DNA of 60,768 nt, the filler included, from Bipalium vagum (taxonomy: Eukaryota), in assembly GCA_037834085.1 (NCBI GenBank). It is 3 parts of 3 records of this genome, joined end to end, with 100 filler letters (N's around TTAATTAATTAA, not from the genome) between each part and the next. Parts side by side here need not be neighbours in the genome. Positions count along the whole stretch, not along the records: positions 41,209 to 60,768 come from JBBMKC010000118.1; 2 more parts are not named here. One strand, written 5' to 3'. The notes beneath the pieces were generated by a model. It was not told the origin of the DNA, searched no databases, and was given only the letters and a program-made list of their open reading frames with translations. Shown here piece by piece: positions 5,534 to 60,768 of the stretch. Numbering within the stretch: the stretch's first letter is position 1; each line of letters begins with the position of its first letter. Position numbers and translations under genes: made by a program.

Positions 5534-6240
5534 CAGGGTTTTCGGGTCAATTTAATAATTTTCGGGTCAATTTTATTATTTTCGGGTCAATTTCATTATT
5601 TTCGGGTCAATTTAATAATCATTGTTTTAATTTTGAATATTTTAAATTTCTTTTTACATAGTATTACATTATATTTTTAGAGAAAGTTGTACATATGCAG
5701 AAGCAAAATAAAGTAAATGTCAGTGAATTATACAAACATTCTAGAACCCGAATTAATGGTGTCAACAATAAGAAAGTGACAAATGAACAACACGAAAGAA
5801 TCATATTAAATTTTCAATGCGGAAAAGGTGCAAAGGAAAATTCCAATTACCATATAATGGAGACTGGTTTTTTGGATTTATTCTTGGAATTTGTTCAATT
5901 TCTTGATTTTAGAAATTGCTTGATTATGATGGAAAATGTTCCATTTTAGAAAATAATTTCTGTTTCTGAAACATTTTCATAAAATGCTTATACTTTATCA
6001 ATTCTCCACCCATATTCACAATTTCTCAATCCTATTGAGAATATGTTTTTCAAATGGTAAAATTCCGTCAGGGTTTCTTTACCAAAGAATGAGAAAGATC
6101 TTTTTTCCGCATTTCATTATAATGGAATGGCGACAATATCAAGTAATGATTTGGACGGGTGTTATCGAAATATGAAAAGATATATCCTGCTATCTCTCAC
6201 GAGAACAACTATTACTGAGTAACTTTAAATGTGCTTTTCT
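5534..6240 (+). mobile_element. Internally deleted IS630/Tc1-like (DDE_3) transposon
   Basis: Starts TA|CAGGG followed by subterminal repeats. Coding remnant LIMMENVPF..SPYSQFLNPIENMFFKW corresponds to the DNxxxH and PPYSPxLNPIExxW motifs. Confidence 0.65.
5539..5619. repeat. 4 x ~20-bp tandem repeat (TTTTCGGGTCAATTT + AT-rich 5 nt)
   Basis: Four directly visible copies of TTCGGGTCAATTT at 20-bp spacing. Confidence 0.9.
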
Positions 6241-11699: not shown

Positions 11700-12959
11700 T
11701 GATATTGGATCCGGTGCAAAATGTTCACAACATTCAACAAGCCAAAGTGCGTCAGAGAACTACGCAGCATTTTAGGAATATGTAATTATTACAGAAAGTT
11801 TATAAAGGAGTATGCTAGGAGTCAAAGTTAGAGAAAATGGAAATGAATGAATACCAAGAAATTAAAACGGAATTAGGCTGCAGAAGAAGAATTTGAAGGC
11901 ATAACGATAGCACTCACAAGTCCTATTCTGAGCTATCCGGACCGACAGAAGGGATTTATTTTGGACACCGACGCCAATTTTGGAGCAATACGAGCAGTGT
12001 TGACAAAAATAGATAAAAATTGGCTGGAAAGGGTAATAGCATACGGATCTCACTCGCTGAATAGCAATAAAAGATATTTCTCTATCACACAGAAAGAATT
12101 ACTGGCAATTTTCTATTTTTATAAACATTTTAACCATTATCTATACGACAGGAAATTCTTACTTAGGACGAATCACAAGGCAAGTATGTATTTCTAGTTG
12201 CGATTGGGAAACAAGATGAAAACACAATTCAAAAAATATTATTATACGAATGGATCTTGAAATTTGGATGCCCAAGACGACTACTTATGGACTGCGAGAG
12301 AGTTTTCGAATCAAGAAGCATGACATGATTTTCAGAAAAGCCTTTTCAAGTCCTTACCACCACAACCCGAGTGGTCAAATTGAGAGACAGTTTTGGAAGA
12401 TGAGATATCTAATGAACGCAACGTTAGAATAGAGAAAAATTATAGATTGGCCTGACGTACTCGAAGATATCAAATTTGCTATGAACACCACATCGCAGAA
12501 ATCAATAAATGCAAGTCCAGCTGAATTTGTGTTTGGTAGAAGAATAGCAAGAACAAATTCGGAACAACACACGAGTGACGTAATCAAAGGGAAGCTCATA
12601 GATACAACAGAGACCAGAAGAAATTTCAATGTTGGAAAAGAAGTACGGGTAAAGGTCGAATGTCGGAATAAGCATCAAGGATGCTTTGAAGGCCCATAAA
12701 AAGTGATAATAAATGTGTATGACCGAAAATAGATCCTACAGAACAGTGACGGAAAGCAGATTGAAAGGAAAAGCTGAAGAGATTTCTTTAAAGGAGGATA
12801 TAAGGAATTATAAAGGTTTTACTTAATCTTAATAATTCAGTAAAATCATTAATTAAAATTGTTTTAATTATTGATTTTTATGAAAGAGCAGATTTTTGAA
12901 ATAAATAAATGTTAGTAATTATTTAGTTTGTTTCATATGAAATTCGAGCAACTTACCAA

Positions 12960-15629: not shown

Positions 15630-16620
15630 TAATTATTAATATTTGGTATATCCTCCAGCTGCATCGATTATTACGGAAAGCCTTCGCTCCATAGTATCTA
15701 CAAGCCTGTACCGGTCATTCTCATTCCCATGATCGTGGTCCACAAATCCTGACACTTGCTGAACAGGGTGTCAGATGTATTTGGCATTATGAGCATATTA
15801 TTATACTAGTATTTCATGCGCCCTCACGCATTTTCGACGGGCTTAGAATGGGGACTGATTGCTGGCTACGGCAGAAGAGGTAAGTCATGATCATCGAACC
15901 AATCTCTTGTAAATTTGGCAGTATGTATTTGTGCATGTCTTGCTGGTAGAATTCCATGTTGTTCATTTTATCGACGAAAGGAAAGAGATTCCGTTCTAAC
16001 CAAATTTCTGTAACCATCTCTAGAAAATGATCCCCACACCATGCAGTGACATGAAATTCTGTTTGGAAGATGGGTAACTAACCGATCATGCAGCCTAGTG
16101 CTTTTCCTACACCATACAAGCTGTTGTCTATAATTCATCTGAACTTTGATTCATCAGTGAAGATGATTGCTGATCAGTTTGTTTGGTGATAATGATGTGC
16201 CAACAACAAACGCACTGCTTTGTGAGCCTTTGAAAGGAAGGACTTGTGTGCTCCAGAAAAAGAAAGAAAACCAATATTCTTCAAGCGGCGATTGATCGTG
16301 CCATATGATAATTTTTGGATTGCACACAAGTTTGATGCTACTTGCCTAGTTCCTTTGAAGGGATATTGTACGACATATCTCGCAATATGTATGTCAAACC
16401 TATCTGTCGTTTCTCGTGGACTCTTGGATTTGATATGGTTTTCTTCATGTGGCAGATCATTATTGATGTTTCGCTGGCAATATTTACTGACAGCAGACAG
16501 TGCCAGATCAATAGTATTGGCTATCTGTTCATATGTCCATTCCGCATGTTTGCGTAATGCATAAATCTGTCCTTTGTCAAAAGGTGTTAAATCGAAACCA
16601 CGGATAATTTGAAAAATATA
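15630..16620 (-). mobile_element. Tc1 transposon remnant, near full coding length, many disablements
   Basis: Minus strand: PFDKGQIYAL..IAIFTDESKF..MVWGSF..KYILP..SPDLxPxEN..W-like motifs. Confidence 0.8.
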
Positions 16621-16757
16621 CTGGAAATTAAACTAAACTAATATTCTAGCTAAATTATAAAGCATAAAACACTCACATAGTCTAACAAAATGACTTACAA
16701 AGCTTTAAATTAGAATTGATAACTATCTGATATATAAAAATAAATAAATCTGATATA

Positions 16758-17270
16758 CAGTACCTGCAAAAAGTATTCGTACGATCACTTAATTTCTAAA
16801 ATAGTTAGATTTAAGAAGCACTATGACAAAAAAAATATTGAAAAATAATTTTAATATAATGGACAGCAATTAATCTGGAAGTATGATGTAGCCTAAAGAT
16901 CAAACTAAAAAAAAAATCTATAAACTTATTTTTGGAAGACTCAGGAAATAAAGACCACAAGAATTATATTTATGACATATAAACAAAAAAGTATTGAATG
17001 TATGTGGCATGTTTAATATTTTATTGGACTTCCTTTGTTATTAAGCACCATTTGACATCTATTATCCATTGATTGCACCAGTTTTTTGCAAAAATCAGAA
17101 GCAATTTTCTGCCATTCTTATATAAGACATGCTTTTAACATTTCTTTTCCAGTTATCTCCCTTTCCTTCACTTTTCTTTTCAAATAGGACCATAAATTCT
17201 CAATATGATTCATGTCCGGTGATTGACCAATTCATTGCAAGACCACAACACTTGTATCTTCCAACAAATT
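16758..17270 (-). mobile_element. Tc1 3' end with TIR (same family as 2472-2724)
   Basis: TIR TA|CAGTACCTGCAAAAAGTATTCGTACGATCACTTAATTTC. Minus strand gives QSPDMNHIENLWSYLKRKV. Confidence 0.8.
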
Positions 17271-19125: not shown

Positions 19126-19225
19126 NNNNNNNNNNNNNNNNNNNNNNNNNNNNNNNNNNNNNNNNNNNNTTAATTAATTAANNNNNNNNNNNNNNNNNNN
19201 NNNNNNNNNNNNNNNNNNNNNNNNN
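19126..19225. other. Assembly linker: 44 N + TTAATTAATTAA + 44 N
   Basis: Directly visible. The 12-mer places stop codons in all six frames. Confidence 0.97.
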
Positions 19226-19489: not shown

Positions 19490-20130
19490 ACTGATTTCAT
19501 CCGTCGGATCATAACTGTAAATGAGACTTGGATTTATCATCATGATTCTTAATAACGTTTGCAGTTGACAGAAGCAGGATGTTCCGTTCCCAATGCAGCA
19601 AAAGAGAGAACGATCATTAAGAAAGATTATGGCATCCATTTTCTGAGATCTGAAAGGTCTTTGTTGATCGATAACCTGGAAAATGGAAAAGCTGTCAAGT
19701 CCAATTATTATACTAATCTATTAGATCAGTTGGTGCGAAACATTCTTATAAAAAGACCTAGACTGAAAAAATCATCTTTCATCAGGTAAATCAGATCACA
19801 AACATGATTTGACAATGGTAAAACGGGACAAAATAAATTTCAAAATTATTAAACAACCACTTTATTCTCCAAGCTATTTTTATCTCTTTAGAAACCTTAA
19901 GCATTTCCTTCGTGTTAGGATTTTTTGCATCAAATGAGGAGATTGCGACAGCTTTAAATCATTACTTTCGCGATCTTCTAGATTCGCACTTAAGATAAGG
20001 AATGGAATTATTGGAGAAAGGGTGGACTAGTTGTCTTACATTGTCACGAGATCATATTGAATAATACATGTTTTTTTCGGTAATTTTTACATTCTTTCCT
20101 TTCTAGACTTAAGATTTTTCACGCAACCTA
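19490..20130 (+). mobile_element. mariner transposase catalytic-domain remnant
   Basis: IITVNETWIYHHD, KIMASIF*D, LLIDNLENGKAVKSNYYTNLLDQL and QPLYSP motifs; disrupted. Confidence 0.8.
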
Positions 20131-24401: not shown

Positions 24402-25150
24402 TTAGGTGTACAACTATAACTCAAGCTTTTTTTAAAATGATAATAAAAATTTTGTTTGCACATATATCTAAATTATATTGAATTGATCTATAAACAAAAA
24501 TATCATATAATTAATAATATCACGAGACAGTTGTTTTAATATTCCTTGTTTAAATATTATAGTGATTCAAAATGTCAATATTCATCCCAAATAAACGACA
24601 TTTGCGGAAAGTAATTCTACATTGCTCTATTGCCAAGAAAACTGCAGCGGAAAAGTACCGCTTGCAACGAGATACCTGTGGAGAACATGCTCTTTCGCTG
24701 ACCACATGTAAAGATTGGTTTGCCATTTTAGAAATGGCAAATATGTTACGAACGACAAGGAGCATGTGAAGCCACAAAAATAATGTGAAGATAGAGATTT
24801 GAGAAGACTGTTGGACGAAGACCTATGCCAAACACAATCTGATCTGGCTGTCGCATTAAATGTGACTCAAGAATGCATTTCAAAAAAACTGGCAGCTTTA
24901 GGAATTATTCGAAAATTAGGAATTTGGATCCCACATGAATTGACAGAAAGATGCATTGAACAGCGAAAAACAATTTGTGTTGTCTTTATTCAGAAACAAA
25001 AAAGGAAAAATTTTTTTCATTGAATTATCACAGGAGACGAAAAATGGATTCCTTATGACAATCCAAAACGCAAAGCAGCTTGGGTGATGACAGGTGAACC
25101 CGGCCCATCAACACCGAAACAAAATTTCCACGGTTTGAAAGTTATGTTGT
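24402..25150 (+). mobile_element. mariner (Mos1-like) 5' half, 3'-truncated
   Basis: TIR TA|TTAGGTGTACAACT. Coding MSIFIPNKRHLRKVILH..KDWF, LLDEDLCQTQSDLA..GIWIPHELT, IITGDEKWIPYDNPKRK. Confidence 0.9.
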
Positions 25151-27916
25151 GTCTTAGTTGTTAGTTCAATTGAACTATCTTGATTTTTAGGATTAATTTA
25201 AAATCATTAATTAATTCAAATAATTTTTCATCGTTTGGTTTGTTTTCACCTGGATTACTATATTTCAATGAATTTCATATTTTTAGCTTAAATGAAATTT
25301 ATTTATAGTTAATGTGTTACCTAAAATTGAAAGGGTTGTGGCTGGTTTTAAAGTAAATACGAGTATAAGTAAATCAAAATATAAAGATGGTAAAATTGGT
25401 TGTATACTAAAATTTATTTTCATCTATTAAAATTTAAGTTTTTTTATCATTTTTATCTTTTTCATTTTTTATATTTTTATATTTTTTAATTTATTATGCA
25501 ATGTCTTCGTACTTAGCGCAGTAGTAATAGGTTTATGATATTTTGTTTAACCTATCTGTAACCTTTTTCTACACCCTGTTGATTTAATTGAGAGTTTCAA
25601 ATTCATTTTTCAGCATAATTGTGTTGAGATCCACAGTAAAACTGGTAAAAAAAACAAGTCAGATCAAACACAAAATCAAAAGAAAAAGATTTTAGAGATC
25701 GCTGACGAACCTCAGAAGCCGATGGAGAGTGATAACAACTCTCCGAAACTAGTGATCTACATTAGAAACATTTGATTTTATATTTGATATTTGAATTTGA
25801 ATTTACATTACATTTTATTTTACATTTTATATGCATAAAAAGGTTCGTAAGGCCTACTATCTTTATTTTATATTTATAAAAAAGGAATGTGGTTTTATAT
25901 TTTATATTGTAAAAATAATATTTAAATAATTAATAAAATTATAAATAATAATAATAATCATTTTAAAAATAAAGTAAAAGTTAATTAAAACTGGAGTTAG
26001 ATATTTCAGAAATAATGATCAAAATAAAAATGGTACCAGCAGGTCGAAAATTTATTTTTGATATAGTTCATATAAAAAAAAATTTTTAAATGATAGATTG
26101 AGATTAAAGATTTTTCTATGCAAGTATTTATACGCATGCTTAATTGTGAGTGTTTTCAAAGAGTTTCCCTGTTGTAAATGATTCTGCTGAGCCATTTATT
26201 TTTTAGAAACAGGATGTTTTAAAACCTTTAATGGTTGAAGTTGGTCTCGAATAGCCATTTTTACTCTACTCTCCTGGTGTTTACATTTGTTACTATTATA
26301 CGTAGTAACGTGTGCTCGTGTACTCGTAACTCCTCACTTTTATAAAATGTTGTGTCCGTCCCTCTCAACCTTATCTGAATCAAAATACGCATAATAATAC
26401 TGTATTCCCACCCCAAGAACTGAATCAAAACGTTCACAATAAAACTTTATTGATAAAAACACAATCCCAAAAATGCTGATCACCACGATAAGTCCTAGTA
26501 AGTCCAAAAATAAATAATAATAAAATAAACACACTGCTATTAATGAGATGAGAGAGAAAGAGAAAATCACTAAGAGAAGTTTGGATAGTATCACCGGAAA
26601 TCAAAAATAAACGGTGTCACCTTCTGCGTTGTCATAGTTAATCTATATTGATTAATCAAACAAACTTTTCAAACTTGGACCTCACCTTTTATTAAATTAA
26701 ATCATTTACTTTTATAAAATTAACTAACATTTACTTTTATAAAATTAACTAACATTTACTTAAAATATTTTTTTTAATTTAAAAAACGTAACATTATAAT
26801 TTATAAACTTTAAATTAAAACCATTTAATAATTGTTAATCTAGGCGTGATGTCCTTATTAAAAAAAACAATTCAAACAAACTATTGTTCGAATCACTCCT
26901 TAAAATCATGTCCACGGAAATTTTGATATACCTTCGTCGTCGTCCTTAATTCGTAGTTATCCTGATTAATCATTCTGAATTCGTAGGTCTCCGTAGTTTA
27001 CTCTGCTTTATTAACGTTAGTGGGTAGATTGATGGGAATAGTCGTTTCTTTATATAGGCGTAGAGATTGGGCTACGATCACCAATCCCTACGCTTCGACA
27101 CGGCTATCTCTCTCAATATCCTCCAATTGCTATTTTTGCCTCCACGCTGAAGCAAAAGAATTTAGTAACTCAAACGACCGAGTACTATTCCTATTTTAAA
27201 CCTCGACGCCGAGGTTAATTACTATAATAATAATAACAAAGGCACTAATTATTATTACTTTATTATTATCTTTATTGCTACTACTTTCCCAATTAAAAAT
27301 GGGAGTATATAACCACTGTTATTATTTTTATTATTACACAATAATAAGATTTAAAAAATAATTAATTTAAAATATCTGATACCAAAATGCTTCGATTTTC
27401 ATAATTTAACATAAAATTCTTCTGTTAACGGATTTCTATTACTTATACTTCACGCAATCTCACATAAAAAAATTCAACCTTGAAATTTTATTTTGATGTC
27501 CTTTGTTTATCTAAATTAAAATTTTAATATTAACAACCTTGGATATTTTAAAATTTGAAAAATATATATTAAGAATTATTACAAATTCATAAAAATTTCC
27601 TCAATAAACTAATCTATTGGAAACTACTGTTTCAGATTATTCTACTTTTGAAAGAAAAAAGGTGATCGCCAAAATTAAGGATAATACCATTTATCCTTTA
27701 TTCCACAAGGATAAATTGTAAAATGCCAATGGTTACAAAAGATTTCTAAAGAATCGGAAAGAGGAATTTGCCAAAAAAGTTTATTATCAGAATCGATCTA
27801 AACTAGATAGTTGTGTTTAACTCTTCATTCATTAAATATTCCGATTTCAAAATATAAAGATCCAGTTGATTTAACAACAAAAAATTTGAAGGCTAAATAT
27901 TAAAACTGAAAAAAAT

Positions 27917-28756
27917 CTATAATTTTAAACCACTATTAAACTTTTTGCTGGCAACATCATGAGACAAGGTTTTTCTGAACGTACCCAGCTTGACCAGTAA
28001 TTTATCAATCCATGAAATTTCGATGTTTTTAGTTTGATCCGGTTTGTTGATTTGAGTCAAATAAATCTGATTGATTTTTAAATTTTTTGTGATATGAATT
28101 TGACCTCTGTAATTATACCAAACTCCATCCCGTTCGATGAATTCGTCCAGACGTTTCAAATCTTTAAACGGAACATTTCCTTGATAACATCTTATACCGA
28201 AAGTCATGTCCAGGTATGATTCCCTTTCACAGCGTTCCATGCTGGTGATAATCAACCGTCTAATCGGATATTTGATGTTGAAATACATCCTAAACCCAGT
28301 GAACCACAATAGATATCGTAAATATCCTTTGGTAGTGATTACATCATTAATACTTCTTTCAAATTTGAATAATAAATTTTTACTATAAAGCGTTGGGTTG
28401 TTATATTTAATTAAAAATTGAGGCTCAAAATAATGAGGCAAGGCCATTTCGATATATTCTTGAAATTTTATTAGGTGATCAATACTATCATTATTGTCAT
28501 TTGACTGCTGTTTTGGTTTCATATTAACCAATGGCTTGTTTGAGTAAAGCCCATTAATTTCGTGTTTTTTACATTTTTGAAGAGATACTTTTGGGTAATC
28601 AATTTCATTTTTTGACAAAAAGTGGATTACTGATAGTGAATGACTTTTATCTGCTTCACAAGAAATTCCTTGATAACTACTGCTTGAGTTGGTAAATACT
28701 CTTAAATATGAAAGCGTTGTCTTATTCCTTAAAAATAGCATTGACACTATCTTCAT
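27917..28756 (-). CDS. C6orf136-like / DUF2358 (NTF2/SnoaL-like fold) protein, probably mitochondrial
   Basis: Intact ~279-aa single-exon ORF with ATG at 28756 and an R/S/L-rich, acid-free N-terminus. The core EMALPHYF..LYSKNLLF..TKGYLRYLLWFTGFR..RLIITSMER..WYNYRGQIHITKNLKI follows the C6orf136 pattern (ELPxLF..LYSxDVEF..TKGRxxY..LEVL..YDAYSTFYL) as recalled. Confidence 0.6.
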   Translation of the reverse strand: MKIVSMLFLRNKTTLSYLRVFTNSSSSYQGISCEADKSHSLSVIHFLSKNEIDYPKVSLQKCKKHEINGLYSNKPLVNMKPKQQSNDNNDSIDHLIKFQEYIEMALPHYFEPQFLIKYNNPTLYSKNLLFKFERSINDVITTKGYLRYLLWFTGFRMYFNIKYPIRRLIITSMERCERESYLDMTFGIRCYQGNVPFKDLKRLDEFIERDGVWYNYRGQIHITKNLKINQIYLTQINKPDQTKNIEISWIDKLLVKLGTFRKTLSHDVASKKFNSGLKL

Positions 28757-29859
28757 CAATACCTAAAATATTAGTTAATTATTATAAAGGTTTGAATTAT
28801 TTATTTCAACCAGTATTTAAACAATATATATATTATTAAATAAATGGTTATTTTATTAATAAATATCGAATAAATTGCAAATGTTTTAAAATATAATAAT
28901 ATTATTAATTTTAGTGAGAAATTTTTTATTACTATTGCGAAATTACCTTTAATATAATATTAAACTGTACTTTAAAAAAATGATTTTATACTATAAATAA
29001 TTTATAAAATTATACAAATTAAAAGTGTTTTTGATTAAAAACCTTAATATTGAATTTAAGATTTCCTTAATTTTTAAAATAAATGTCTTTAATTTATTTC
29101 TTAAACTATATTATCCAATTTGTTTGGATCCTATGCATATTCAATAAATAGTTATTTATTATATTTTATTGAGATTTACAGTATATTAACAACCGTTTAT
29201 TTTTATATTTTTTTATTAGTAGAAATATAAATAATTGTATTTGTGAAGATCATAACAGTGAAACTCAACGATGGACAACAAGAGATAAAGAATCATTTAT
29301 AAAAGATATTTATTCAAACTTTGATTTTATTTTTGATTTTATTTAGTATGATTTATATGATTTTAATTTTAATTTGTATCATGTATTTTAATATTTATAT
29401 ATTTTAGGTAAAGACTGATTTGTTTTAGCTGGTAATTAAATAATTCTGTCTTGTTTTCTGTAAGTCCTTACATAAATAAATTAAATAAAATTTACTCCAT
29501 ACCATTGTTGAGGTTCAACTCCTATCTTATAATTTCTGTAAATAAAATTTTGGCGAAAAATTAAATTTAAATAATAGGCTGGCTAATTAAAAATTTCGTA
29601 TTTTAATTGTTAATTTATTAATTTAAAATTAATTAAATAAACTTTAAATGTTATAATTTACCACAATCATTATAATAACCGTTGTTTATATTATTTGTCT
29701 TATTTTATTATAATTAATTTTAATAAATCGATTGTTTATGGTATGGAATAAGTATATACTTAAGGATTCACATAAAAAATAAACGGATAAAAGGAAATAA
29801 ATAAAAATAATGGATACACTGATTTCAATAATGTCATAAAATAATAATGATTAGAATGG

Positions 29860-30720
29860 CAATAATAATATATTTACTAAGGGCTTAATGAGGTCAAAAG
29901 TGGTCGTAAGTCGAAAAATGCACAAATATCAGAAAGATCACTTATTCGGATGTCAGAGCAAAATCTCCATAACACAACAGGTGATCTTTTATCTATTGAA
30001 AATCAAGCCAAACTTCCTCAGTTAGTACTGTGAAGCACATTCTGAGAAAATATGGCTTGTTCGAGGAATTGCAGCGAAGAAACCATGTTTAAATGACCCA
30101 CAAATCAAGAATCGCTTAAAGTCGTGCTGAGATTTTAATGAACCGCTTCCTTCTTTATGAAATGAGGTCATTTTTACTGATGAAAGCGGAATATAACTGT
30201 TCTCTTGAAGAAGGGAATACGTCTGCTAACCATATGGATCCAGGTAGAATCTAAAATATACCACGAGAAACTGTAAAATTTTGAGGAAATAGTTTGATGA
30301 TTTGTGACGAAATCAAAGAAGATGGGACCAGAGTTCTCATAAGGTGTCCGGATTGGATGAATTCTGGTGCCTACCAGGATGTATTGAAAAAAGGGTTGCT
30401 ACCAATATATGAGGAACAGAATATATTTCAACAAGACGGAGCTTCATGCCATAAGTCAAGATTGGTGACTTCATTTTTGGATAAGTCCAAGTTATGTGTA
30501 CTGAGTGATTGGCCTTCTCAATCACCAGATCTGAATATAATTGAGCCGCTGTGGGCTGATCTGAAAGCCAGGGTTGCTATTGAGGCACTGTGGGAGAATT
30601 CGGAAGAGTAGTGGACGATGATTCTATCATCTAAGATTAAAAGTCTTTATGAAAGCATACAAAGAACGATCCAAGAGGTACCTAAAATAAAGAATAATAA
30701 ATGTAATTAAAATTAAAATA
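29860..30720 (+). mobile_element. Tc1 (DD34E) transposon remnant
   Basis: VIFTDES, IFQQDGASCHKSR and WPSQSPDLNIIEPLWADLK motifs; upstream part frameshifted. Confidence 0.9.
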
Positions 30721-39399: not shown

Positions 39400-40190
39400 A
39401 TATTTGAAGATTTCAGGTAATCTTTAAATAAACTTGAAGTATGCACTATACAATTGTCCTGTTGAAAGAAAATTCTTGTCAAAATTAATTCTTATAGCTG
39501 GTACAATGTGCTTCTTCAACATTGCTCTGGTAGAAAAGGTTAAAGGTGGATACCAAGAGCTTATTCAAAAACTACTTTTAAAAACCTGCATCAATCTGGT
39601 TTTCCAAAATTTTCTGCTAAGAGAATGTTCAATTTAACCTTGAAGCATAAAACGAATAGAATTAAATGGTGTGAAGAAAACAGAAAACCAAGATGAAAGA
39701 ACTGCATTTTTAATGATAAGTATTGATTTTGGCTATATGACATGAAAGGAAAACTCTGGTCCTAGGCTAGACTTCAGATTTCTGCTTGGAAATTAGGACC
39801 ATCATTAATGATATGGAGTGCAATTAGATCTACAGATAAATCCAGCCTGATTTTTATAAAAGTAATAGTAAGCAGCCAAATATATCATAAAGACTCCCTA
39901 GTAATCAACAAGATGGTGCAATATTCCTCAAAATCTACCGCTGATTGGTTATAGAAGAATAAATGGATGATATCTTCATGGCCAACTAATTACTCTGACT
40001 TGAATCCTATTGAAAATCTTAGAGCACTAATGAAAACTGAAGGTTAATTTACAGTTAAGTTATTTGAGAAATTTAAGATGGAATTTCCATTACAACTATA
40101 AAGTCTTTAATGTAAGGCATGCCAACAAGACTTGAAAATTATTATTAGTATTATTGAAAAAAGGGGGACAAATTAAAACTTAATTTCTAT
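39400..40190 (+). mobile_element. Tc1 transposon remnant
   Basis: RIKWCEEN, SLMIWSAI, QQDGA and WPTNYSDLNPIENL motifs; many stops. Confidence 0.75.
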
Positions 40191-41108: not shown

Positions 41109-41208
41109 NNNNNNNNNNNNNNNNNNNNNNNNNNNNNNNNNNNNNNNNNNNNTTAATTAATTAANNNNNNNNNNNNNNNNNNNNNNNNNNNNNNNNNNNN
41201 NNNNNNNN
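41109..41208. other. Assembly linker: 44 N + TTAATTAATTAA + 44 N
   Basis: Directly visible and identical to the linker at 19126. Confidence 0.97.
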
Positions 41209-42018: not shown

Positions 42019-43236
42019 TTAGGTCATTAAGTATGAAATGCATTACTTTGTATGGTCATTTTTAAATTCTAATACCTCTGCGAATTTTTATTCTTAAATA
42101 ATAAACTTTGTTTTAATATTTAACTAAAGCCACACTTTCAAAAAATCAAGTGACATATTTTAGATAAATATATGATTTGTAATTTACTGTTTAATGGAAA
42201 AATTCAAAATTCTTATATTAATGGAATTCGAGTTCCGTAGAAAATCCATGATTGCTCAGACCGTCCGGAACTTAAAGGATGTCTTCGGTAGTAATACTCC
42301 TTTTCAAATCATCATCAGCCGTTGGTTTGAAAAATTCAGATATTGAGATTTTTGCTTGGAAAATCAGCCCCGAGAAAAACCAAAAATATCAATTTGCAAA
42401 GGTGAATTAAAAGCTTTCGTGGAAAAAAATCCCAGCCAAACTACCACAGATTTACCAACAAGGTTTGGTGCTTACGTCTCAACTATTTTGATTCATCTGC
42501 GACAAATTAATAAAGTCAAAAGACTCTACCGATGGATTTCATCGGATTGACAGATATCCATAAGAAAAAAATGGCTTCAATACAAGCACAAGAGTGACTC
42601 ATTTTTGCACCGTATTGTTACGTGTGACGAAAAGTGGATCCCCTATGACAATCGAAAGCGTTCTACACAATGGTTAGATGCAGATGAACCCTCTAAAACA
42701 TGACCACCGTTTGGTGGACAAGTCTTTAAGTGATATACCATAGTTTCTTGAAACCAAGTCAGTCAATCACAGCAGAGCTTTACTGCACTCAAATGGAAGA
42801 AATAATGAAGAATCTGGCAAAAAACAGCTGAAATTGGCCAATAGAGATAAACCAATTCTTCTCCATGACAATGCCGACCGCAAGTTTGCAAATCGGACTC
42901 AATTAAAAATTATGGAGATGGATTTGGAAACAATCGATCATCCTGCTTATTCTGTAGACTTTTCACTTACAGATTATTGTTTTTTCCTTAATTTTGACAG
43001 CAAGGAAAAATATTGCGCAGAGGCTGCTTAAGGTTCATTCACTCAATTTATTGATTCCCTCAAACCAGAGTTTTTCGATAAAGGCATTTCCGACCTACTA
43101 ACGAGAAGTGTCTTCTTTCTGACGGTGCATACTTCGATTGATTCCCTTTTTTTTTATTATAGGTACAAAATTTATTAAAATTTCTATTAACATATTTATT
43201 GATTCTAGAAAATAATTATACATTTCATGGCCCGTA
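42019..43236 (+). mobile_element. Near full-length decayed mariner element
   Basis: TA|TTAGGTC left end; MEKFKILILMEFEFR; RIVTCDEKWIPYDNRKR; LLHDNA; HPAYSVDFSLTDY. About 1.2 kb with frameshifts and stops. Confidence 0.9.
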
Positions 43237-49415: not shown

Positions 49416-50761
49416 CAGTAAAATCTCGTTACTATGCCACCCATCGGGACCGAGAAAAAGTGGCATAATAACAACAGTGGCATAATAGCGAGGGTTTGTA
49501 AAAAAAGACTATTTTTTTAAGTTACTATTAGCTAATCCAAAGACTTCAAAAATCGTCGGCTGACGCATTTTCTTTTGTCGGATTCTGTTTATCTCGTTAT
49601 CTAACCTATCGCACGCTAACATAACATCAGTTTTACCGCTGTTCTGTTGCATAAACTTTCGAACAATAATCCATGCACGCTGGGCTTCCTCGAAAGGAAC
49701 AACTTCCTCCTCGACAATTATTATTTTATTATCTTTGTCTTCCAACGGTTCCTCGCTGCACAGCACCTCCTCCGCAATCTCTTCTAACGTAAATGATCCA
49801 CCAGTCGCAAGGCGCTCGTCAGCATTAAGAAAATCCAACAGCTCAATCTCTTCGTTTTCATACATTTTTTCTTCTTCCGGCAGAGATTCCCAAATCTCGA
49901 GCAGCTCATTATCCTCTGGCTCAGTTTGGATTTCTGCTTTACAGAACTTGGCCTTTGAAAAACAGTTCCTAATTGCTAATTCGGTGACTTTCTCCCAAGC
50001 ACGTCGAATGACATGTAGAGCGTCAAGCAATGTAAACTTAAACTCTTTTCCTTCATCCATTGCTTCAAGTCGACGACACAGCAAAAGCTTTTTGTAGTTA
50101 CGTTTGAGAATCTCTATAATTCCCTGATCCATTGGTTGAGAATTGAATTTCCAATTACTAGAAGAGGAAATTTTTCGTTACCACTCATGTTTGCCCCAAC
50201 TAAAAGTGTAATTCTTTGCTTGCTCTTCTTTCCTCCTGTGCATCGCTCACCCCTGAAAGACATGGTCTTATTTGGAAGAAGCTACCAGAAAAGTCCTATC
50301 TCGTCTAGGTTGAAGACGTCGTTTGCGCTAAACTTTTTTAGTAAAGGCTGGAGAACCTGTTGTTTCGACTCAAGAAGAGATTGCGAATTTACTGTTCCAG
50401 CTTCACCCTGTACTGTCTTAAACACAATGCCGTGGCGCCTCTTAAAGTTATCTAGCCAACCGTCACTTGCCATAAAAATTTGGATGTGCATCAACTCGGC
50501 CATTTTTACAGCCTTTTCCTTGATAAGATCTCCGCTGACAGGCAGATTTGCTCCTCTTGCCTGCTTCAACCACATGAGTATGCACATTTTTAGTAGTAAA
50601 ATATAATTTAAATTTAAAAAATCATAACATCATCATTATTTAATGGTGGCATAGTAGGGCGGGTTAGGGGTGGCATAATAAATTTATTTTGTAGTAAATT
50701 TAGTCTGAAACGTAGAAAAGTGGCATAAAAGCGAGAGTGGCATAGTAACGAAATTTGACTG
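49416..50761 (-). mobile_element. pogo/Tigger (TIGD4/6-like) transposon, deletion derivative with both TIRs
   Basis: TA|CAGTAAAATCTCGTTACTATGCCAC ... GTGGCATAGTAACGAAATTTGACTG|TA, with subterminal GTGGCATA repeats. Encodes a CENP-B-type HTH (PVSGDLIKEKA..ASDGWLDNFKRRH), VFNLDEIGLFW and QPMDQGII; the central DDE region is deleted. Confidence 0.93.
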
Positions 50762-51779: not shown

Positions 51780-53220
51780 TTACGATTTTTAGACATACAG
51801 TGAGTACCGATGGAGTCAAAACTAACAAGAAGGTTGAACAAATTGTGAAAGCAAAACCACCTTGTTGCGTGTCTCAGTTGAGTTCATTTTTGGCTTGACA
51901 AACTATTACCGGCGCTTTATTGCCCATTATGCTTCATTGGACGGAACAATACCACAAGAGTTTTCAAGTACTGAAGAATAAACTATGCCAAGCACCAATT
52001 CTGGATTTTCCAAGCAGAGATCGTTTTTTTATTTTGGTTACAGATGCAAGCCTTGGAGCGATTGAATCTGTTTTGAGTCAGCTGAAGGAAGATGGAAATG
52101 AAACAGTGATTTCTTATGCCCCTAGACACTTATCAACTCGTGAATTCGGATATTGTTTCATCAGAAAAGATCTCTTATCAATCTACGAATTTGTTCTCCA
52201 TTTCAAGCAGTTTTTATATGGAAAACAGTTCATTGTGAGAACGGATCATAAAGCTTTGGTTTTTATGAACACCACGAAGCACCCAGTTAGTTCACAGCTT
52301 CAAACTTGGCTAGTTAATCTATCAGATTACAATTTTGAACTGAGATATAGAAAAGGCCAGGATCATAGTAATGCTGATGGCCTATCCAGAATTTCCCATG
52401 TGGTTTGCTCTCGATGCCAAACGAAGCATGAACAAACCAAGAATGAGAAGCCAAAAACAAAATACATCAGTGCCGTTCATAATATTACACCTCAATTGGA
52501 AAGAATAAGAAGCGAACAGAAGTCCGATAAACTGATATTTGGATTTATTCAATATCTTTCAGAAGGGAGGAGAGAATACCCTGAAAAGTTGAAGAATAAC
52601 AGTTTCTATCCTTTGAGAGATAGATTGGATGTTATCGATGACTTGTTGCTCTTATCAAGAAACGAACGAAATCTTATCACTATCCCAGAAAAATTTATTG
52701 ATGATTTTATGATGGGAACTCATACCGACTTGTATCATCTTGGTAGCAAGAAAATATTTAACTATCTGAAAGATCATTACTATTGGCCATTGATGTTGAA
52801 TTCAGTTAAACTATGTATTAAACCCTGCTATATTTATGCCAAGAGAAAAATTTATCAAACGCACACTAAAGAAATCCTTATACCGAGAAGAAACTCACAT
52901 TTCTTAGACCAGATCGTCGTAGATATAGCCTTTATGGAAAAAGCAGCGGCACACTAAAGATAAATAGTTATCATTATTGGCTGTTTTAGCAAACTAGTGA
53001 GTCTATGCGCGATGGGCAAACTTGATGATCAATCCATTTTAAAGGCAATAATGAACAATTGGATTTATAAATTTGGCAAGCCGAAGAGTATTTAAAGAGA
53101 TCGAAGGAAGAACTTTTTGATTTCTTGGATTCAACAAAAATGAAAAGATCTCAATATCCAATGTGAATTCAGTTCACCTTACCAGCACCAGTCCATTGGT
53201 CTAGTCGAGCGAGCAATGAC
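51780..53220 (+). mobile_element. Gypsy LTR retrotransposon pol fragment (RT end, RNase H, integrase)
   Basis: LTNYYRRFI; FILVTDASLGAI..VRTDHKAL..YRKGQDHSNADGLSR; integrase H-H-C region (HTDLYHLG..YYWP..C); IVVDI; SSPYQHQSIGLVER. Confidence 0.92.
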
Positions 53221-53229
53221 TTTTTATCT

Positions 53230-53640
53230 CAAAGCAGTACTACAATATCATCCAGTACCCTAAGAAGAATCCTCAAAAAATATTTTATTCATGGTTACAG
53301 AAGCATAAGGAAACCTTTCCTATCAATAAGACAAAGACAAAAGATAATGTTACGAACCAACAAGCATAAGGACTGGTATTTTAATAAGTTCAAAAATGTC
53401 TTCAGTAACGAAAGCATTTTCCAGTATTATAGCCAGCATGTAAAATATGGCGTAAATTATGGACACCAAATGACAAAGGCAAACCAGGAAATATACACCA
53501 AACTATGAGTCACGGACCTAAAATACATGTATGAGGATGTTTTTCTTCGAATGGTGCGGGATTATTAAAGAAGGTTCCATGGATGCCAAATTATATTAGA
53601 GAAGAATAGTAAATAACATTGATGTCGTTGCTTAATCATG
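53230..53640 (+). mobile_element. Tc1 fragment
   Basis: VFSNESIFQL and HGPKIHV*GCFSSNGAG motifs. Confidence 0.7.
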
Positions 53641-54717: not shown

Positions 54718-57301
54718 ATGGATAATATTATAAATGGTTGGTATACAGAAATGTCTGATGATTGGGCTGGACAAGCAACAAGTTTAAAAGTTAAGGAGAT
54801 CTTAGAAAAAAAGAAAACTAAATTCCAGGATCTGTTAATATTTGAAAGGTATTTTGTTCGTAAATATTATTGCTTTTAAATTATTAAACTCTGAAGCACA
54901 AACCACGGTAAGGTGTTAGTGTTAGATGGAGTAATTCAACTGACAGAAAAGGACGAATTTCTCTATCAGGAGATGATGTCAATGTTACCATTAAATTGCC
55001 ACCCCAATCCTCAAAAGGTATTGATAATTGGTGGAGGCGATGGTGGTGTCATGAGAGATGTTGTGAAACATCACAAAGTTAAAGAAGTTATTCAATGTGA
55101 AATCGATGAAGTTGAATTGAATGTTATTAAAACATTTTAAATCTGAGAATAGGACGTTGTCAACCTAAGTAAAAAGCATTTGCAATTTATGGCCATCGGA
55201 TACGAAAGTGACAAGGCTCAAATAGTCATTGAAGACGGATTCGATTTCTTAAAGAATCATAAAAACGAGTTTGATGTAATAATAACGGATAGTACAGATC
55301 CCAGAGGTTTTAGTTTGTAAAATTAGGCTTTTATTATATATTTTTACAGGTCCGGCTGAAGTGCTCTTCCAGGAAAATTATTTTAGATTGATTTTTGAAT
55401 CTCTAAAAGAAGATGGTTTAATGTGTTCTCAAGGTACTTTTTCATTTAATTGTCTTTTAAATAAGACATATTTCATAAGAAATAAAAATAAAATTTTTTT
55501 AATTGATAATTGTAATTAAATTTTTGTTTATTTATCTTTAAAATTAATCAATCTACATCGATAACTGAAACACGATAATTTTGTAAATTTATTTCATTTA
55601 TTATGAAGGTCAAAATATTTGGTTGGAACTGCCCCTCATAAAACTGGTGCTCAGAATATGCAAATCAATTTTCCCGGTGGTGAAATATGCTTTTGGCTGC
55701 GTCCCTACGTACACAAATGGCCAAATCGGATACGTGCTGTGCAGTAAAAATCCGGTAATTCTGTTGAATATTTTTATGTTACAAATTTCGTATTGTCCTT
55801 TTTCTTCCGAAAAATTTCATTTTTTCCTGTTACGATAAATAGTGGTTTCAGTGAAAATTGATTTTTATTTTCTGTTTATCTGTGGCTTGATAATATAAAA
55901 ATATTGATTGTTAAAAATACTTTCTACCGTAAGGAGTCAATTTCAACAAGAAATCGATTTTATTTGATGCAAAAAGAAAATTTCTAAATTAAATGTAATA
56001 TTTAAATAAAAAATTTATTCTTTTGAAAAATTGAAAGCTATCAATAAAGTAGCTGGGTAGAAAAATAGCGTGAAAACATAAGGTCGAATTTTCAAATTAA
56101 AAAAATTGTCATTGGTATCTGTTTGGTTTTCGTCTGGTTTCGTAGTCGATGACATCCGTCCAATCGATAAAAATTTGTGTCATGGGAGAAATGTTGAAGT
56201 TGCTTGTTTTAGAATAATATACTCACCTTCCGATCAATAGACAATAATCGATAATCACACAACGATTCGAGAAATGATGATTTTATAGTTTTAACATTAG
56301 TGATTTCTAAAAAATTGGCTAATTTGGTAATCAAATAAACTTAATCTGGACTAAATTTCATGGCTACAGACGGTGTAGATTAGCCAGACTTTACTAAATT
56401 ATTATTTTTCACTTATTATTACTGATTAATAGTATAATGATTTCTAAGATATGTTTATCAGTTCCTAGGTAGTAGGTAGTAAATCACGCTACAAATTAAG
56501 TCATGGTTTTTACTTCACTTACTTTTGTGACGTAACATTCTGCCTAATATCAATCTAAAAAAATTAACTAATAATTGGGATTTAGAATATTTTCATTTTC
56601 AGTATTAATTTGAATTTTTGATCAATTATCTGGAAATGTGTCTTTGAATAATTTGATCTATATTAAAATCATTGCAAGTCTTGTAATTACTTTTAAATAT
56701 TGACGAAGTATTAATGAGAATCATTAAATATATTTGTTTTTTAAAAAAATATTTATTTCCACAAGGTTTCCTTTTTTAGCACTTCTATTCTTCCGATTTT
56801 TGTAACTATTTTCTCCGTTATTTTTTATTAACCAAATCTGGGACACAAGTTCGATTGTTTTATCAAGTTCAATCTGTCTTCATGTTATTAAGAATGTTCT
56901 ACTCGGTCTGTCTTAAGTAATATATTTATAATAATAACAATTATAATGTGAATGACAATAATAGTAATATTCAAGTTTATAAAGCTTAAAATTCCCTTCT
57001 TGGAACTATTTAGTCATACTTTGCCAAACTTCTCAGCTTTGCGTTAAATTTAAAATGGTCTTTCATTTTTATTTTATTTTATCCAATTATTAATTGCTGA
57101 ATCGAAATAGAAAACGAATTTCAAAGAACCACTTGAAGAAAATTTACCGTTCCAAAAGGAGCTGAGACATTATTCACCTGATGTTCACCGGGCCTCATTT
57201 GCGTTGCCCTATTCCATCCAAAAGGTTCAATTTTAAATTATAATTAATACAATAATTGTTTCCGACAATTGTTTCAGGAGATCGATGAAATAATCTATTA
57301 A
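54718..57301 (+). CDS. SRM: Spermidine synthase (aminopropyltransferase), 7 exons
   Basis: Exons 54718-54848, 54897-55110, 55153-55306, 55350-55433, 55609-55754, 57111-57224, 57278-57301 join in frame. Motifs: [84 protein letters not shown]. Confidence 0.95.
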
Positions 57302-57984
57302 TTTCGTTTTTGAAAAGGTTAACATGTTTTCTTTTTTGTATTTTTTGTTTTAAATAATCAATAGTTGATTGATATTTTTTATTATCGATCGTTTTTTCAA
57401 AAAACCAACGGTCAATGTTCAGGGTGAGTAAGCTTGAGATAGGTTCCCGACTTGGAAATTCATTGAGTTAAAGATTTTTGCGTTGCGGAGAGTTTACTTT
57501 AATGTCGGACATGAGCATATTTTTCTGTGTCCTGCTCACAGTTTCTATTGATCTTAGGTATCTGTAAGTATGAGTAAAATTAGAAACAATGTTGTGGAAT
57601 TTTTTATCGAAGTAAAATTTTGATTTTTCCAACCATTCAAGCTTAGTTTGTTCGCTGATCTCATCTTAGGTCTTTTTTTTTGAAAAGAAGTATTACTTTA
57701 TCCTGTATTAGATCTTGAATAAAACCTTGTTTAATTAATGTATATATGTTAGTTAATAATGTGCAAAAAGTAAGATTTCCATTATGTTGCAGAAATAAGG
57801 AAATCTTATTTGACCAAATTTGATATGAAAATAACAATGAATTAATTACTATAAAAAACTTCTATAAATGCAACGAAAAATATTAAAATTTACAACAATT
57901 AAATATAAATAATCTCTAGCATGAAAACTATTAACTTTTAAATTAAATATTCCTGAAATACATTACAGATTTATGTATTAAAAG

Positions 57985-58734
57985 ATGGAAGTTTCTCTGC
58001 AAAAAATATCAAATCTTTTATCTCAAAAATTTTCAACATCATTTATTGTAGAAAGTAAAGATTTAGATATAACATTTAAGTTAGTTACCCCACTAAATCT
58101 TGATCCAAATTTTAACTATGAATTAGCTCTAATTTATTTCTTAACTTATAATTATATTTTTAATTTTACTGAAAAAAACAATGTAATATATGTAACTGTT
58201 ACAGAATCAAAAGGAAAAAAAGAATCTCTAAAGATAACTCCCGGAGCATATGAAATTTCTTATATATCTGCATATATTGAGAATGGACTTAAAAGTATAA
58301 AAGAATTAGAACCCCTTAAAAAGAAGAGTCTTATCTAATATTTAATGGTAATCCAATTTCTTCAAACTGTGTAATGAAAATTTTCCTAAGGAAAATTCAA
58401 TTGCTGAATTGTTAGGATTTGAAAATAAATCTTATAAAGAAGGTTGTTATGAATCAAAACCAGTTAAAATTTCAAAGACAAAATTATGTTTGATTGTAAT
58501 ATTGTAGAAGGGGGATTTTATAATGGTAGAAGAACAAATATTATTTTTGATTTTCCTTCAAATACTGTTCCAAAATGATATAGAATCATTGAAAGATCAA
58601 AATTCCTAATCTATCGTCCTTTACTTACAAGAAATATTTCTGAAATAAAATTTAAGATATTTGATAATAACAAAGAATTAGTAAATTTTAATGGAGAAGA
58701 AATTAGTTTTACTATTCATTTAAAACAAGTTTGA
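57985..58734 (+). pseudogene. Polinton/Maverick-type minor capsid protein (penton), frameshifted
   Basis: Reconstructed PLNLDPNFNYELALIYFLTYNYIFNFTEKNN..LKITPGAYEISYI..NSIAELLGF..DCNIVEGGFYNGRRTNIIFDFP..VPK*YRIIE..LIYRPL..ISEIKFKIFDNNKELVNFNGEEISFTIHLKQV follows the characteristic Polinton mCP pattern. Several frameshifts in 58320-58490 and a TGA at 58576. Confidence 0.8.
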
Positions 58735-58783
58735 TATAAGACAAAATCGTATTTAAAACAAGTTTAAAATTTAATTTAAAAAA

Positions 58784-58975
58784 ATGAATGGTTGTAACTT
58801 TTGTTCTGATTTCTTAAATCATAATTCTATAAAAATTAATAATCATAAAAATTTACTTTTTATATGTGGTAGATTTGGACATTTACAAAGAAGTTGCCCA
58901 ATGGCACAAAGAAACGTCAATATAGTTAGTGAAACTCAAAGTGATAATGAAGAAACTTTGGAAATACATGTCTAG
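58784..58975 (+). CDS. Small ORF with degenerate CCHC zinc knuckle (element-borne)
   Basis: LFICGRFGHLQRSCP fits CX2CX4HX4C except for the first Cys; N-terminal CxxC. Starts about 50 nt after the penton stop. Confidence 0.45.
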   Translation: MNGCNFCSDFLNHNSIKINNHKNLLFICGRFGHLQRSCPMAQRNVNIVSETQSDNEETLEIHV

Positions 58976-60007
58976 AATTGAAAAATTAGAATTAATGTTA
59001 AGAGAAGAATGTCTAAAAATTGATAGATTAAAGGAACAAGAAAAAGAGACCCACACACCAATAACAACAATTAGAGAAGAAAATAGATTACAAAGAAATA
59101 TAAACATAGCTTCAAAATGGATAAAGGGTGAAATAGCTATCGATAATGTCGAAGAAGTAAAACACTTTTTAAGATGGAATACCGTTCCTAAAACCTGGAA
59201 TTAGAATTGCTACAAAAAATAGGAAGAGAATGATCAACAGACGAGAAAACGTTTTATATTCATTATAAGTATCCAAATTATTTAGTAATAAAAAATGTGG
59301 TAGCACTCAATACATCTGTAGAAGAAATATTAGTATTGTTACACGAACAATTGGACAGAAAAGTTAGACTCACATATTACGATTACCACTCAATAACGAT
59401 AAAAGTTTATTGGAAAGTAGAGTGATTCCTGGTTGGTATAATTTGATAAATTATGAACCAGAAGAAGTAATTACAGGAGAAATGATTTGCACTTTTAAAG
59501 AATTAAGTGACGAGGAAAAGAAGTACATGAATAATATACCAGTAAAGTTAAATCAAGAATTAACAAAAAATAATGTAGATCATGTAAAAATTAAACTCAT
59601 ATTAGACGAAATAGCACAATTACCAATACCTATCAAAATTTTAGAGAAAATAGTAAATAAATTGAGGAATTGGATAACCTTTTCAGATTTACACCGAAAA
59701 GAGTTAACCTTAATATTAGCTAAATAAGGCCAAAGTCTCAGACAGTCTAAGCGAACTTATACACTTATTAAACTTGATGTAGTGATGCCAGATAATACAG
59801 TAAATCATTACGAAATTCCTTTCTTAAGTAAAGCTAAAAAATTGAGAAATATTGTAATGAAACAATTAACATTACCTATTATTCCATTAATTTAGTTTTG
59901 GTAAGTTTATCGATGATGATGAGTATTTTATTGATAATGGCTGTAATCCTAATAAAAGTAATATTGTTAAAATTTCATATTCAAGTTCCATTATGATATT
60001 ATTTTGA
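58968..60007 (+). pseudogene. Disrupted ORF with two predicted ubiquitin-like (beta-grasp) domains
   Basis: The ATG overlaps the previous stop (ATGTCTAG). Repaired translation gives FYIHYKYPNYLVIKNVVALNTSVEEILVLLHEQLDRKVRLTYY[G]LPLNNDKSLLESRV and IKLDVVMPDNTVNHYEIPFLSKAKKLRNIVMKQLTLPIIPL/FSFGKFIDDDEYFIDNGC, both matching ubiquitin hydrophobic spacing. Confidence 0.5.
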
Positions 60008-60038
60008 TGATATTATTGATTTAACTTCTAAATTTCAG

Positions 60039-60659
60039 GAAACAGATATACAATCAACGATAAAACCATTGGATGATTTTCGATCGGATGGTGAGGCTCA
60101 TAGCTCGAAATCCTTCGATAAATTGATAAATGAGTTGGCACAAGATTTTGCTAGTCCCGATAATGTGGAAGAAGCATGGGATAACACTGAAAACAAAGAT
60201 GTAGAGATTGTTGAAATTGATAAACCCGCAATATTTAAACGTTATTGGCTAACAGATATAGACGAAGGAGTAATACCAGAGTCAAAACTGGATAATAAAC
60301 ATCACGAAGTCATTCCCAATGCGAAACCATCAACCATTTATTTGGAAGAAAATGATTATGGCGATTTTATACAAACAGAAAAAGTGTCTGATGCCGATAC
60401 AAGCAATCGACAACAATCGAACGTCATATTTAAAGATAAAGCAATAACTGAGAAACCAGTTCAATACAAAGAAGAAAACGATTTGACTTCAGTAATACCC
60501 ACAATAAACGAGACAAATGCTGAACATAAATCGAAAAAGCAAAACCAATCGCCGAGTACGTACCGCGAAAGAAAAATGTCAAAAAAAGGATGCGTTAAAT
60601 CTCGCTCAGCAACGAATCCAATTTCGAATGGCTCAACAGTTATCAGAAGATGTAAATAA
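60039..60659 (+). CDS. Acidic, low-complexity ~200-aa ORF of unknown function
   Basis: Open from 59997 to 60659 with no in-frame ATG near its start (track start is TTG). Preceded by TTTCAG at 60033-60038, a possible acceptor. Confidence 0.45.
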   Translation, partial: ETDIQSTIKPLDDFRSDGEAHSSKSFDKLINELAQDFASPDNVEEAWDNTENKDVEIVEIDKPAIFKRYWLTDIDEGVIPESKLDNKHHEVIPNAKPSTIYLEENDYGDFIQTEKVSDADTSNRQQSNVIFKDKAITEKPVQYKEENDLTSVIPTINETNAEHKSKKQNQSPSTYRERKMSKKGCVKSRSATNPISNGSTVIRRCK

Positions 60660-60689
60660 TAAATTAGATGTAGAGAAGGAACCGTAACA

Positions 60690-60698
60690 ATATTATTA

Positions 60699-60768
<70 letters not shown>
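60690..60768. repeat. (ATT)n microsatellite at window end
   Basis: Run of ATT units to the end of the window. Confidence 0.95.

Follow-up and report, generated by a model that had tools for sequence, protein, structure and literature searches.

Pentons are the proteins that occupy the five-fold vertices in capsids of the double-jelly-roll type (PMC4028283; PMC6048507), and pentamers at capsid vertices have been described for the penton of mavirus (PMC6048507). In the alignment of the Polinton penton protein PX published as Fig. S2 of PMC4028283, the rows of Nematostella Polinton-4, Nasonia and Tribolium measure 225–259 aa and those of Sputnik and mavirus 378 and 303 aa, respectively. Polintons carry an RVE integrase (PMC11161782), and in vertebrate Mavericks the genes follow one another in the order integrase, penton, PW and major capsid (PMC8097293). 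Broken copies are also on record: supplement 1 of PMC4028283 lists several Polintons in which PX is fragmented, 96% of 3,511 vertebrate Maverick loci are in a degraded state (PMC8097293), and Maverick/adintovirus relics are described in 10.1101/697771.

The locus considered here was recognized in a stretch of 60,768 nucleotides from the genome of Bipalium vagum (GCA_037834085.1), which is referred to as a whole as the window. It is very probably a non-functional remnant of the penton gene of an endogenous DNA virus of the Polinton/Maverick type. The relic and its immediate surroundings comprise the following features.

57985..58734, + strand: broken, intronless gene for a penton (minor capsid protein, Polinton PX-like), recognized by homology to relatives, a profile and the fold of a relative
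57985..58338, + strand: the only ATG-led open piece of that gene, 117 aa, which probably carries the N-terminal jelly-roll strands and the start of the insertion domain, as placed on the model of the relative P0001
58468..58734, + strand: C-terminal piece, which contains the in-frame stop and shares 72% identity with P0001 (hhalign to profile A2, probability 99.8)
58718..58770, + strand: 20-nt direct repeat (90% identity, spacing 33 nt) that spans the 3' end of the penton gene and may be due to chance
58784..60659, + strand: broken coding block, separated from the penton stop by 49 bp; it contains an incomplete zinc knuckle (58859-58900), an acidic frame of 220 aa and several further open pieces
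54718..57301, + strand: host spermidine synthase gene, intact, 7 exons, a neighbour outside the relic that splices to an uninterrupted frame of 287-290 aa
60691..60768, no strand: (TAT)n microsatellite that runs up to the window end, the sequence beyond being unseen

The relic occupies exactly the interval given in a preliminary description of this DNA, from an ATG at 57985 to a final stop at 58732-58734, and begins 683 bp after the end of the spermidine synthase stop at 57301 (there given as about 700 bp). The first open frame of 117 aa, the frameshifts and the one TGA reported in that description were all found again: in a tblastn comparison with the relative P0002 (sum E 7e-63) the gene falls into four frame segments, at approximately 57985-58326, 58320-58382, 58370-58495 and 58477-58731, the frame changing three times, near 58320, 58375 and 58475, and a single in-frame stop, TGA, lying at 58576-58578. 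P0001, an intact protein of 258 aa, aligns end to end with 57985-58731 (tblastn, E 3e-69). The product of about 240 aa proposed earlier is upheld, its length being corrected to about 250 codons. Since the relic has 249 codons, versus 256-284 aa in the intact relatives that align with it end to end, and since homology spans every break, there is no room for introns, and the gene is intronless in the manner of Polinton/Maverick genes. Profile A2, which comprises 93 relatives with the window sequence left out, was compared with the 3332 stop-to-stop window segments of at least 12 aa as a chance control; it matched four pieces of the locus (E 4.7e-33, 4.1e-16, 2.6e-9 and 3.4e-7, the score of the N-terminal piece being inflated because many A2 rows were chosen by similarity to it), the next segment reaching E 0.13. 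This profile missed the short piece 58320-58412, and no second penton copy was found within the window.

P0001 was obtained with the C-terminal piece as query (one of 14 candidates) and is identical to the relic at 149 of 233 positions (64%). With P0001 as query 6 proteins were recovered among 719 candidates, and a profile of these 6 matched 3101 of the 8000 candidates scored, which indicates a large penton family; among the 120 family matches listed, lengths range from 254 to 284 aa and all are without a name and without a Pfam domain. With the N-terminal piece as sole query 100 representatives were retrieved at E<=1e-3, at least one of which is spurious (P0049). In a tree of 94 rows, computed with the quick version of the search, the relic clusters with P0001-P0004 (SH-aLRT 92) inside a six-row clade (99). 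These four proteins, from ENA and Logan contigs of 0.9-3.5 kb, share 47-64% identity with the relic over 231-234 columns, but their reading frames are unbroken. Relatives were found neither in GTDB genomes (two scans, with 274 and 40 pattern matches and 0 confirmed) nor, by tblastn, in phages and plasmids. Searches of Pfam, PHROGs and NCBIfam with the penton pieces and relatives gave no significant match (none below E 0.001 in Pfam and PHROGs), the nearest Pfam family being DUF5901 with E 0.002 in one of 13 relatives; as these collections are blind to the penton and its clade is small and unnamed, routine annotation would miss the gene. Comparison of P0001 and A1 with PDB sequences returned nothing meaningful, and the sole PDB sequence match of profile A2 was P1v1 of PBCV-1 (8h2i_bG, E 0.013), which is a penton variant (PMC9617893).

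The fold was assessed on a model of P0001, that is, of a relative 64% identical to the window product and not of that product itself. The model, predicted from a 93-row alignment with a pLDDT of 96.1 and a pTM of 0.87, contains a single jelly-roll with a variable insertion domain. When it was compared with the PDB by Foldseek, ranks 1-6 were taken by the mavirus penton (best E 3.4e-11, TM 0.47), followed by adenovirus and Sputnik capsid chains; 40 matches were obtained at E<=0.001, and the first non-viral chain appeared at E 1.4e-3. VIA-align gave Z>=8 for 6 of 48161 chains, all of them viral capsid chains (Z 10.3-13.4, rmsd 2.8-7.5, 130-248 aligned residues): a PBCV-1 chain (Z 13.4, rmsd 2.8 over 130 residues), the mavirus penton (Z 13.4, rmsd 7.5 over 233), PBCV-1 8h2i_bG (13.2), Sputnik (12.4), an aviadenovirus (11.9) and EhV-201 (10.3); the best cellular chain reached Z 6.3. 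The P0001 model thus shares with the pentons of mavirus (PDB 6g41/6g42; PMC6048507), PBCV-1 (P1v1), Sputnik and adenoviruses (VIA Z 11.9-13.4) a single jelly-roll and an inserted, helix-carrying, beta-rich domain, whereas identity to them is 9-14%, TM is about 0.47 and the rmsd for both domains combined is about 7, and these pentons belong to virophages, giant viruses and adenoviruses. In BFVD the model obtained 56 matches at E<=0.001 with approximately 8-19% identity, the first being a Tetraselmis virus S1 protein (E 4.2e-16); also among them are Klosneuvirus/Catovirus minor capsids, that of mavirus, a penton from a MELD virus and adomavirus LO5, as well as adintovirus proteins, of which the named ones are placed lower than giant-virus minor capsids. 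Taken on this model, the comparisons support membership of the relic's protein family in the single-jelly-roll pentons (minor capsid proteins): the predicted fold settles the penton and leaves the virus group unsettled. The penton call of the preliminary description is borne out in this way, and the Foldseek comparison which it had proposed for the repaired protein was made with P0001. Of the two outcomes that it had named as contrary to its call, no jelly-roll match or homologues that are intron-containing host genes, neither was observed.

As to the virus group, the relic family displays by eye the same series of motifs as the published PX rows (PMC4028283), in line with the Polinton minor capsid pattern noted earlier for this locus. 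Five of six short motifs drawn from the Nematostella, Nasonia and Tribolium PX rows were found in order in the relic and none of 2000 shuffles reached three, a test that is biased, as the six motifs had been written after both the PX rows and the relic family had been seen; across the 93 relatives, four motifs at most occur in any one protein. With Polinton/Maverick PX (PMC4028283) the relic has in common a similar length, the order of the motifs by eye, the lack of introns and its position in a eukaryotic genome rich in transposon relics, and it differs in being broken, the comparison being one with published rows by eye and with motif patterns. The motif match makes Polinton PX a strong lead, short of a formal assignment, and the label "Polinton" rests on the match by eye together with the host context.

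It is improbable that the relic goes back to the chance integration of some other penton-bearing virus (a Polinton-like virus, virophage, giant virus or adomavirus) and not to an animal Polinton. Such an origin would agree with the top BFVD matches (Tetraselmis virus S1, Klosneuvirus/Catovirus minor capsids and adomavirus LO5), with the Atlas neighbours, unnamed and mostly viral clusters whose commonest phylum is mostly given as Nucleocytoviricota, and with the fact that Polinton neighbour genes were not found in the window. However, the structural matches in question are of the low identity given above, the length of about 260 aa and the motif series are by eye closer to the Polinton PX rows than to Sputnik and mavirus (PMC4028283), and many members of the family lie on long ENA contigs (10-1200 kb), as expected of integrated copies.

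Other parts of a Polinton/Maverick-type element were sought by comparing all 356 stop-to-stop window segments of at least 45 aa with Pfam (E<=0.01 for 300 of them and <=0.05 for 56), a scan that covered a minority of the 579 segments of 30-44 aa and whose sensitivity is limited here, the penton itself being missed by Pfam. Among the 356 segments no Pfam match was obtained to pPolB (the window ends 2 kb downstream of the penton), to the RVE integrase or to the packaging ATPase and cysteine protease; for capsid families, the major capsid included, the same was true of these segments and of the pieces downstream of the relic, with Pfam equally blind to the penton. The earlier statement that pPolB, integrase, ATPase, protease and major capsid genes are not visible accordingly stands for the scanned segments, with the exception of a Gypsy-type integrase zinc-binding domain at 51899-52954. 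In addition to this domain, the window contains relics of mariner/Tc1, pogo and Gypsy elements, listed below.

51899-52957, + strand: Gypsy-type pol relic (Pfam), RNase H joined to an integrase H2C2 (zinc-binding) domain, which is not the Polinton integrase
11877-12197, + strand: Gypsy-type pol relic, RNase H
49509-50629, − strand: broken transposase of the pogo/Tigger type, HTH_Tnp_Tc5 and DDE_1
3-317, 16177-16632, 19556-19786, 24566-25161, 30285-30608, 39544-39693, 42176-42343 and 53167-53505: at least 8 fragments of transposases of the Tc1/mariner type (Pfam)

Four end hexamers tested ((AGT)2 or (AG)3 ends, vertebrate-type motifs) were not found beyond position 55800, there is no long inverted repeat in 57250-60768, where the far end of an element may fall outside the window, and Rfam gave 0 matches to the window. 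Polinton PX as a rule adjoins the PY/major capsid gene or lies one gene away from it (PMC4028283), but no such gene was recognized within 2 kb after the relic; neither were integrase, PW and major capsid neighbours of the vertebrate Maverick type on either side of it, the upstream side being closed by the host spermidine synthase gene. Because no other viral gene was recognized in the window and no element end near the relic, the locus is filed as an orphan penton relic and not as a Polinton element, none being demonstrated in the window. Of the endogenous dsDNA virus-like element proposed in the preliminary description, the viral penton gene is upheld and the surviving element is not, one viral gene having been identified. 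No literature linking spermidine synthase with Polintons was found. GC content is slightly higher in 57400-57560, between the host gene and the relic, in a segment with no Rfam or Pfam match, and the boundary of the penton insertion may lie near it.

The coding block downstream of the relic is open on the penton strand in pieces of 66, 92, 63, 119, 55, 38 and 220 aa (58784-60659), lengths that were reached in 500 shuffles 0 times for the 220-aa frame, 20 times for 119 aa and 96 times for 92 aa. Its sole domain match is zf-CCHC_6 (E 1.7e-4), just below the curated cut-off. MATH, SUMO/ubiquitin, gag, protease and RT domains gave 0 Pfam matches and none that was significant in NCBIfam, and a PDB sequence search with the block reached a best E of 0.12, which is not significant. 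A SUMO-like domain was considered and rejected, Pfam giving no match and an ICAD chain being hit at E 1.4 only. The single-sequence model of the block (pLDDT 41.6) is too poor to judge a major capsid, and its best structure matches (BFVD E 0.054, VIA Z 5.0) are meaningless.

That the penton and this block together represent one undescribed mobile element, for example a giant Gypsy-type retroelement with a captured Polinton penton gene as accessory ORF or a Polinton lineage in which an unknown large gene follows the penton and replaces PW and the major capsid, is an unlikely proposition; it draws support from the 49-bp same-strand junction and from the decay shared by the two, a literature search on pentons beside zinc knuckles found nothing relevant, and, if it were true, a DNA-virus capsid gene would be carried by another class of element. 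It is decidedly improbable that the penton was carried to this site as cargo by the element encoding the block (e.g., a giant retrotransposon of the Gypsy type that bears accessory ORFs). The strand and spacing just mentioned, the broken state of both genes and the weak CCHC match are compatible with such a passage, as is the order of knuckle, coiled-coil-like, beta-rich and ubiquitin-like regions in the block, which by eye recalls ORF1 of the planarian element Burro (PMC6431247). On the other hand, the retrotransposon and accessory domains sought in the block gave no match, no LTR was seen at the block, it has no similarity to the Gypsy relics of the window, and a penton is absent from the Burro domains listed in PMC6431247. 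Of the set that characterizes Burro-like giant Gypsy elements (Gag with CCHC, Smc, MATH, SUMO-like, BCL2, Env, PR-RT-RH-IN and LTRs), the block offers one sub-threshold knuckle only.

That the organism itself has an intact or almost intact gene, the breaks being assembly errors or the collapsed consensus of many copies, is very improbable. Of the 41 columns conserved in the clade 39 are retained in the relic, on a par with intact relatives, the draft assembly contains linker gaps and the frame changes sit in A/T-rich runs, all of which would suit artificial breaks; against this, the 873 coding bases of the neighbouring spermidine synthase splice unbroken, the relic has an in-frame stop as well, the downstream block is also broken and the nearby pogo-type transposase is likewise in pieces. 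With two of the 41 conserved columns changed, versus a deviation of 4-23% in 19 intact relatives, the excess of changes at conserved columns that is expected in a relic was not found, and sequence erosion is no independent proof of pseudogene status. The columns kept would point to a young relic or, in part, to assembly error, and the decay of the gene looks recent. An ordinary host gene with short introns is in practice refuted: although the host uses such introns (37-53 nt in spermidine synthase, plus two of 175 and 1356 nt) and GT..AG pairs occur in the broken zone, the relic has no spare sequence to hold them, and its fold matches are viral.

For a remnant of a Polinton/Maverick-type penton gene, the following history can be proposed. 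In the source element the protein, with a single jelly-roll base and an insertion domain, would have occupied, as pentamers, the twelve five-fold vertices of an icosahedral capsid of the double-jelly-roll type. An integrase-bearing Polinton would have been inserted into the germ line of the host, most of it may then have been deleted or separated, or may lie beyond the window, and the remaining penton gene would have kept decaying. Its present output would be at most the truncated 117-aa piece, which lacks the C-terminal strands, and hence no functional capsid protein. The locus resembles the degraded Maverick/adintovirus fossils (PMC8097293; 10.1101/697771), of which the majority state is likewise one of stops and frameshifts with no discernible ends, and differs from them in that a single viral gene is recognized here, in a host of about 27% GC with very short introns, the latter a feature that may bear on the host lineage. 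The relic is confirmed as real, correctly read and an ordinary viral fossil of a common kind, degraded Polinton genes being very common in eukaryotic genomes. It would nevertheless record the colonization of this host lineage by a Polinton-type virus, and it provides a probe for intact copies in the host genome.

The window is AT-rich (GC 0.16-0.38 per kb) and is composed of at least three contigs, with the penton in the last; N runs surround a 12-nt TTAATTAATTAA linker at 19126-19225 and 41109-41208. The second-longest open frame in the window is a stop-free frame of 281 aa at 27917-28762 (− strand), for which Pfam, PHROGs and NCBIfam gave no match and the PDB no real one, a match to RecA having been rejected because its rows derive from a repeat-fusion construct. 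A 65-nt inverted pair (97%) at 2669-2733 and 16749-16813 and an 85-nt direct match (71%) at 2462-2546 are probably Tc1 terminal repeats of related elements. At 5539-5638 a 20-nt unit is repeated head to tail in four to five copies.
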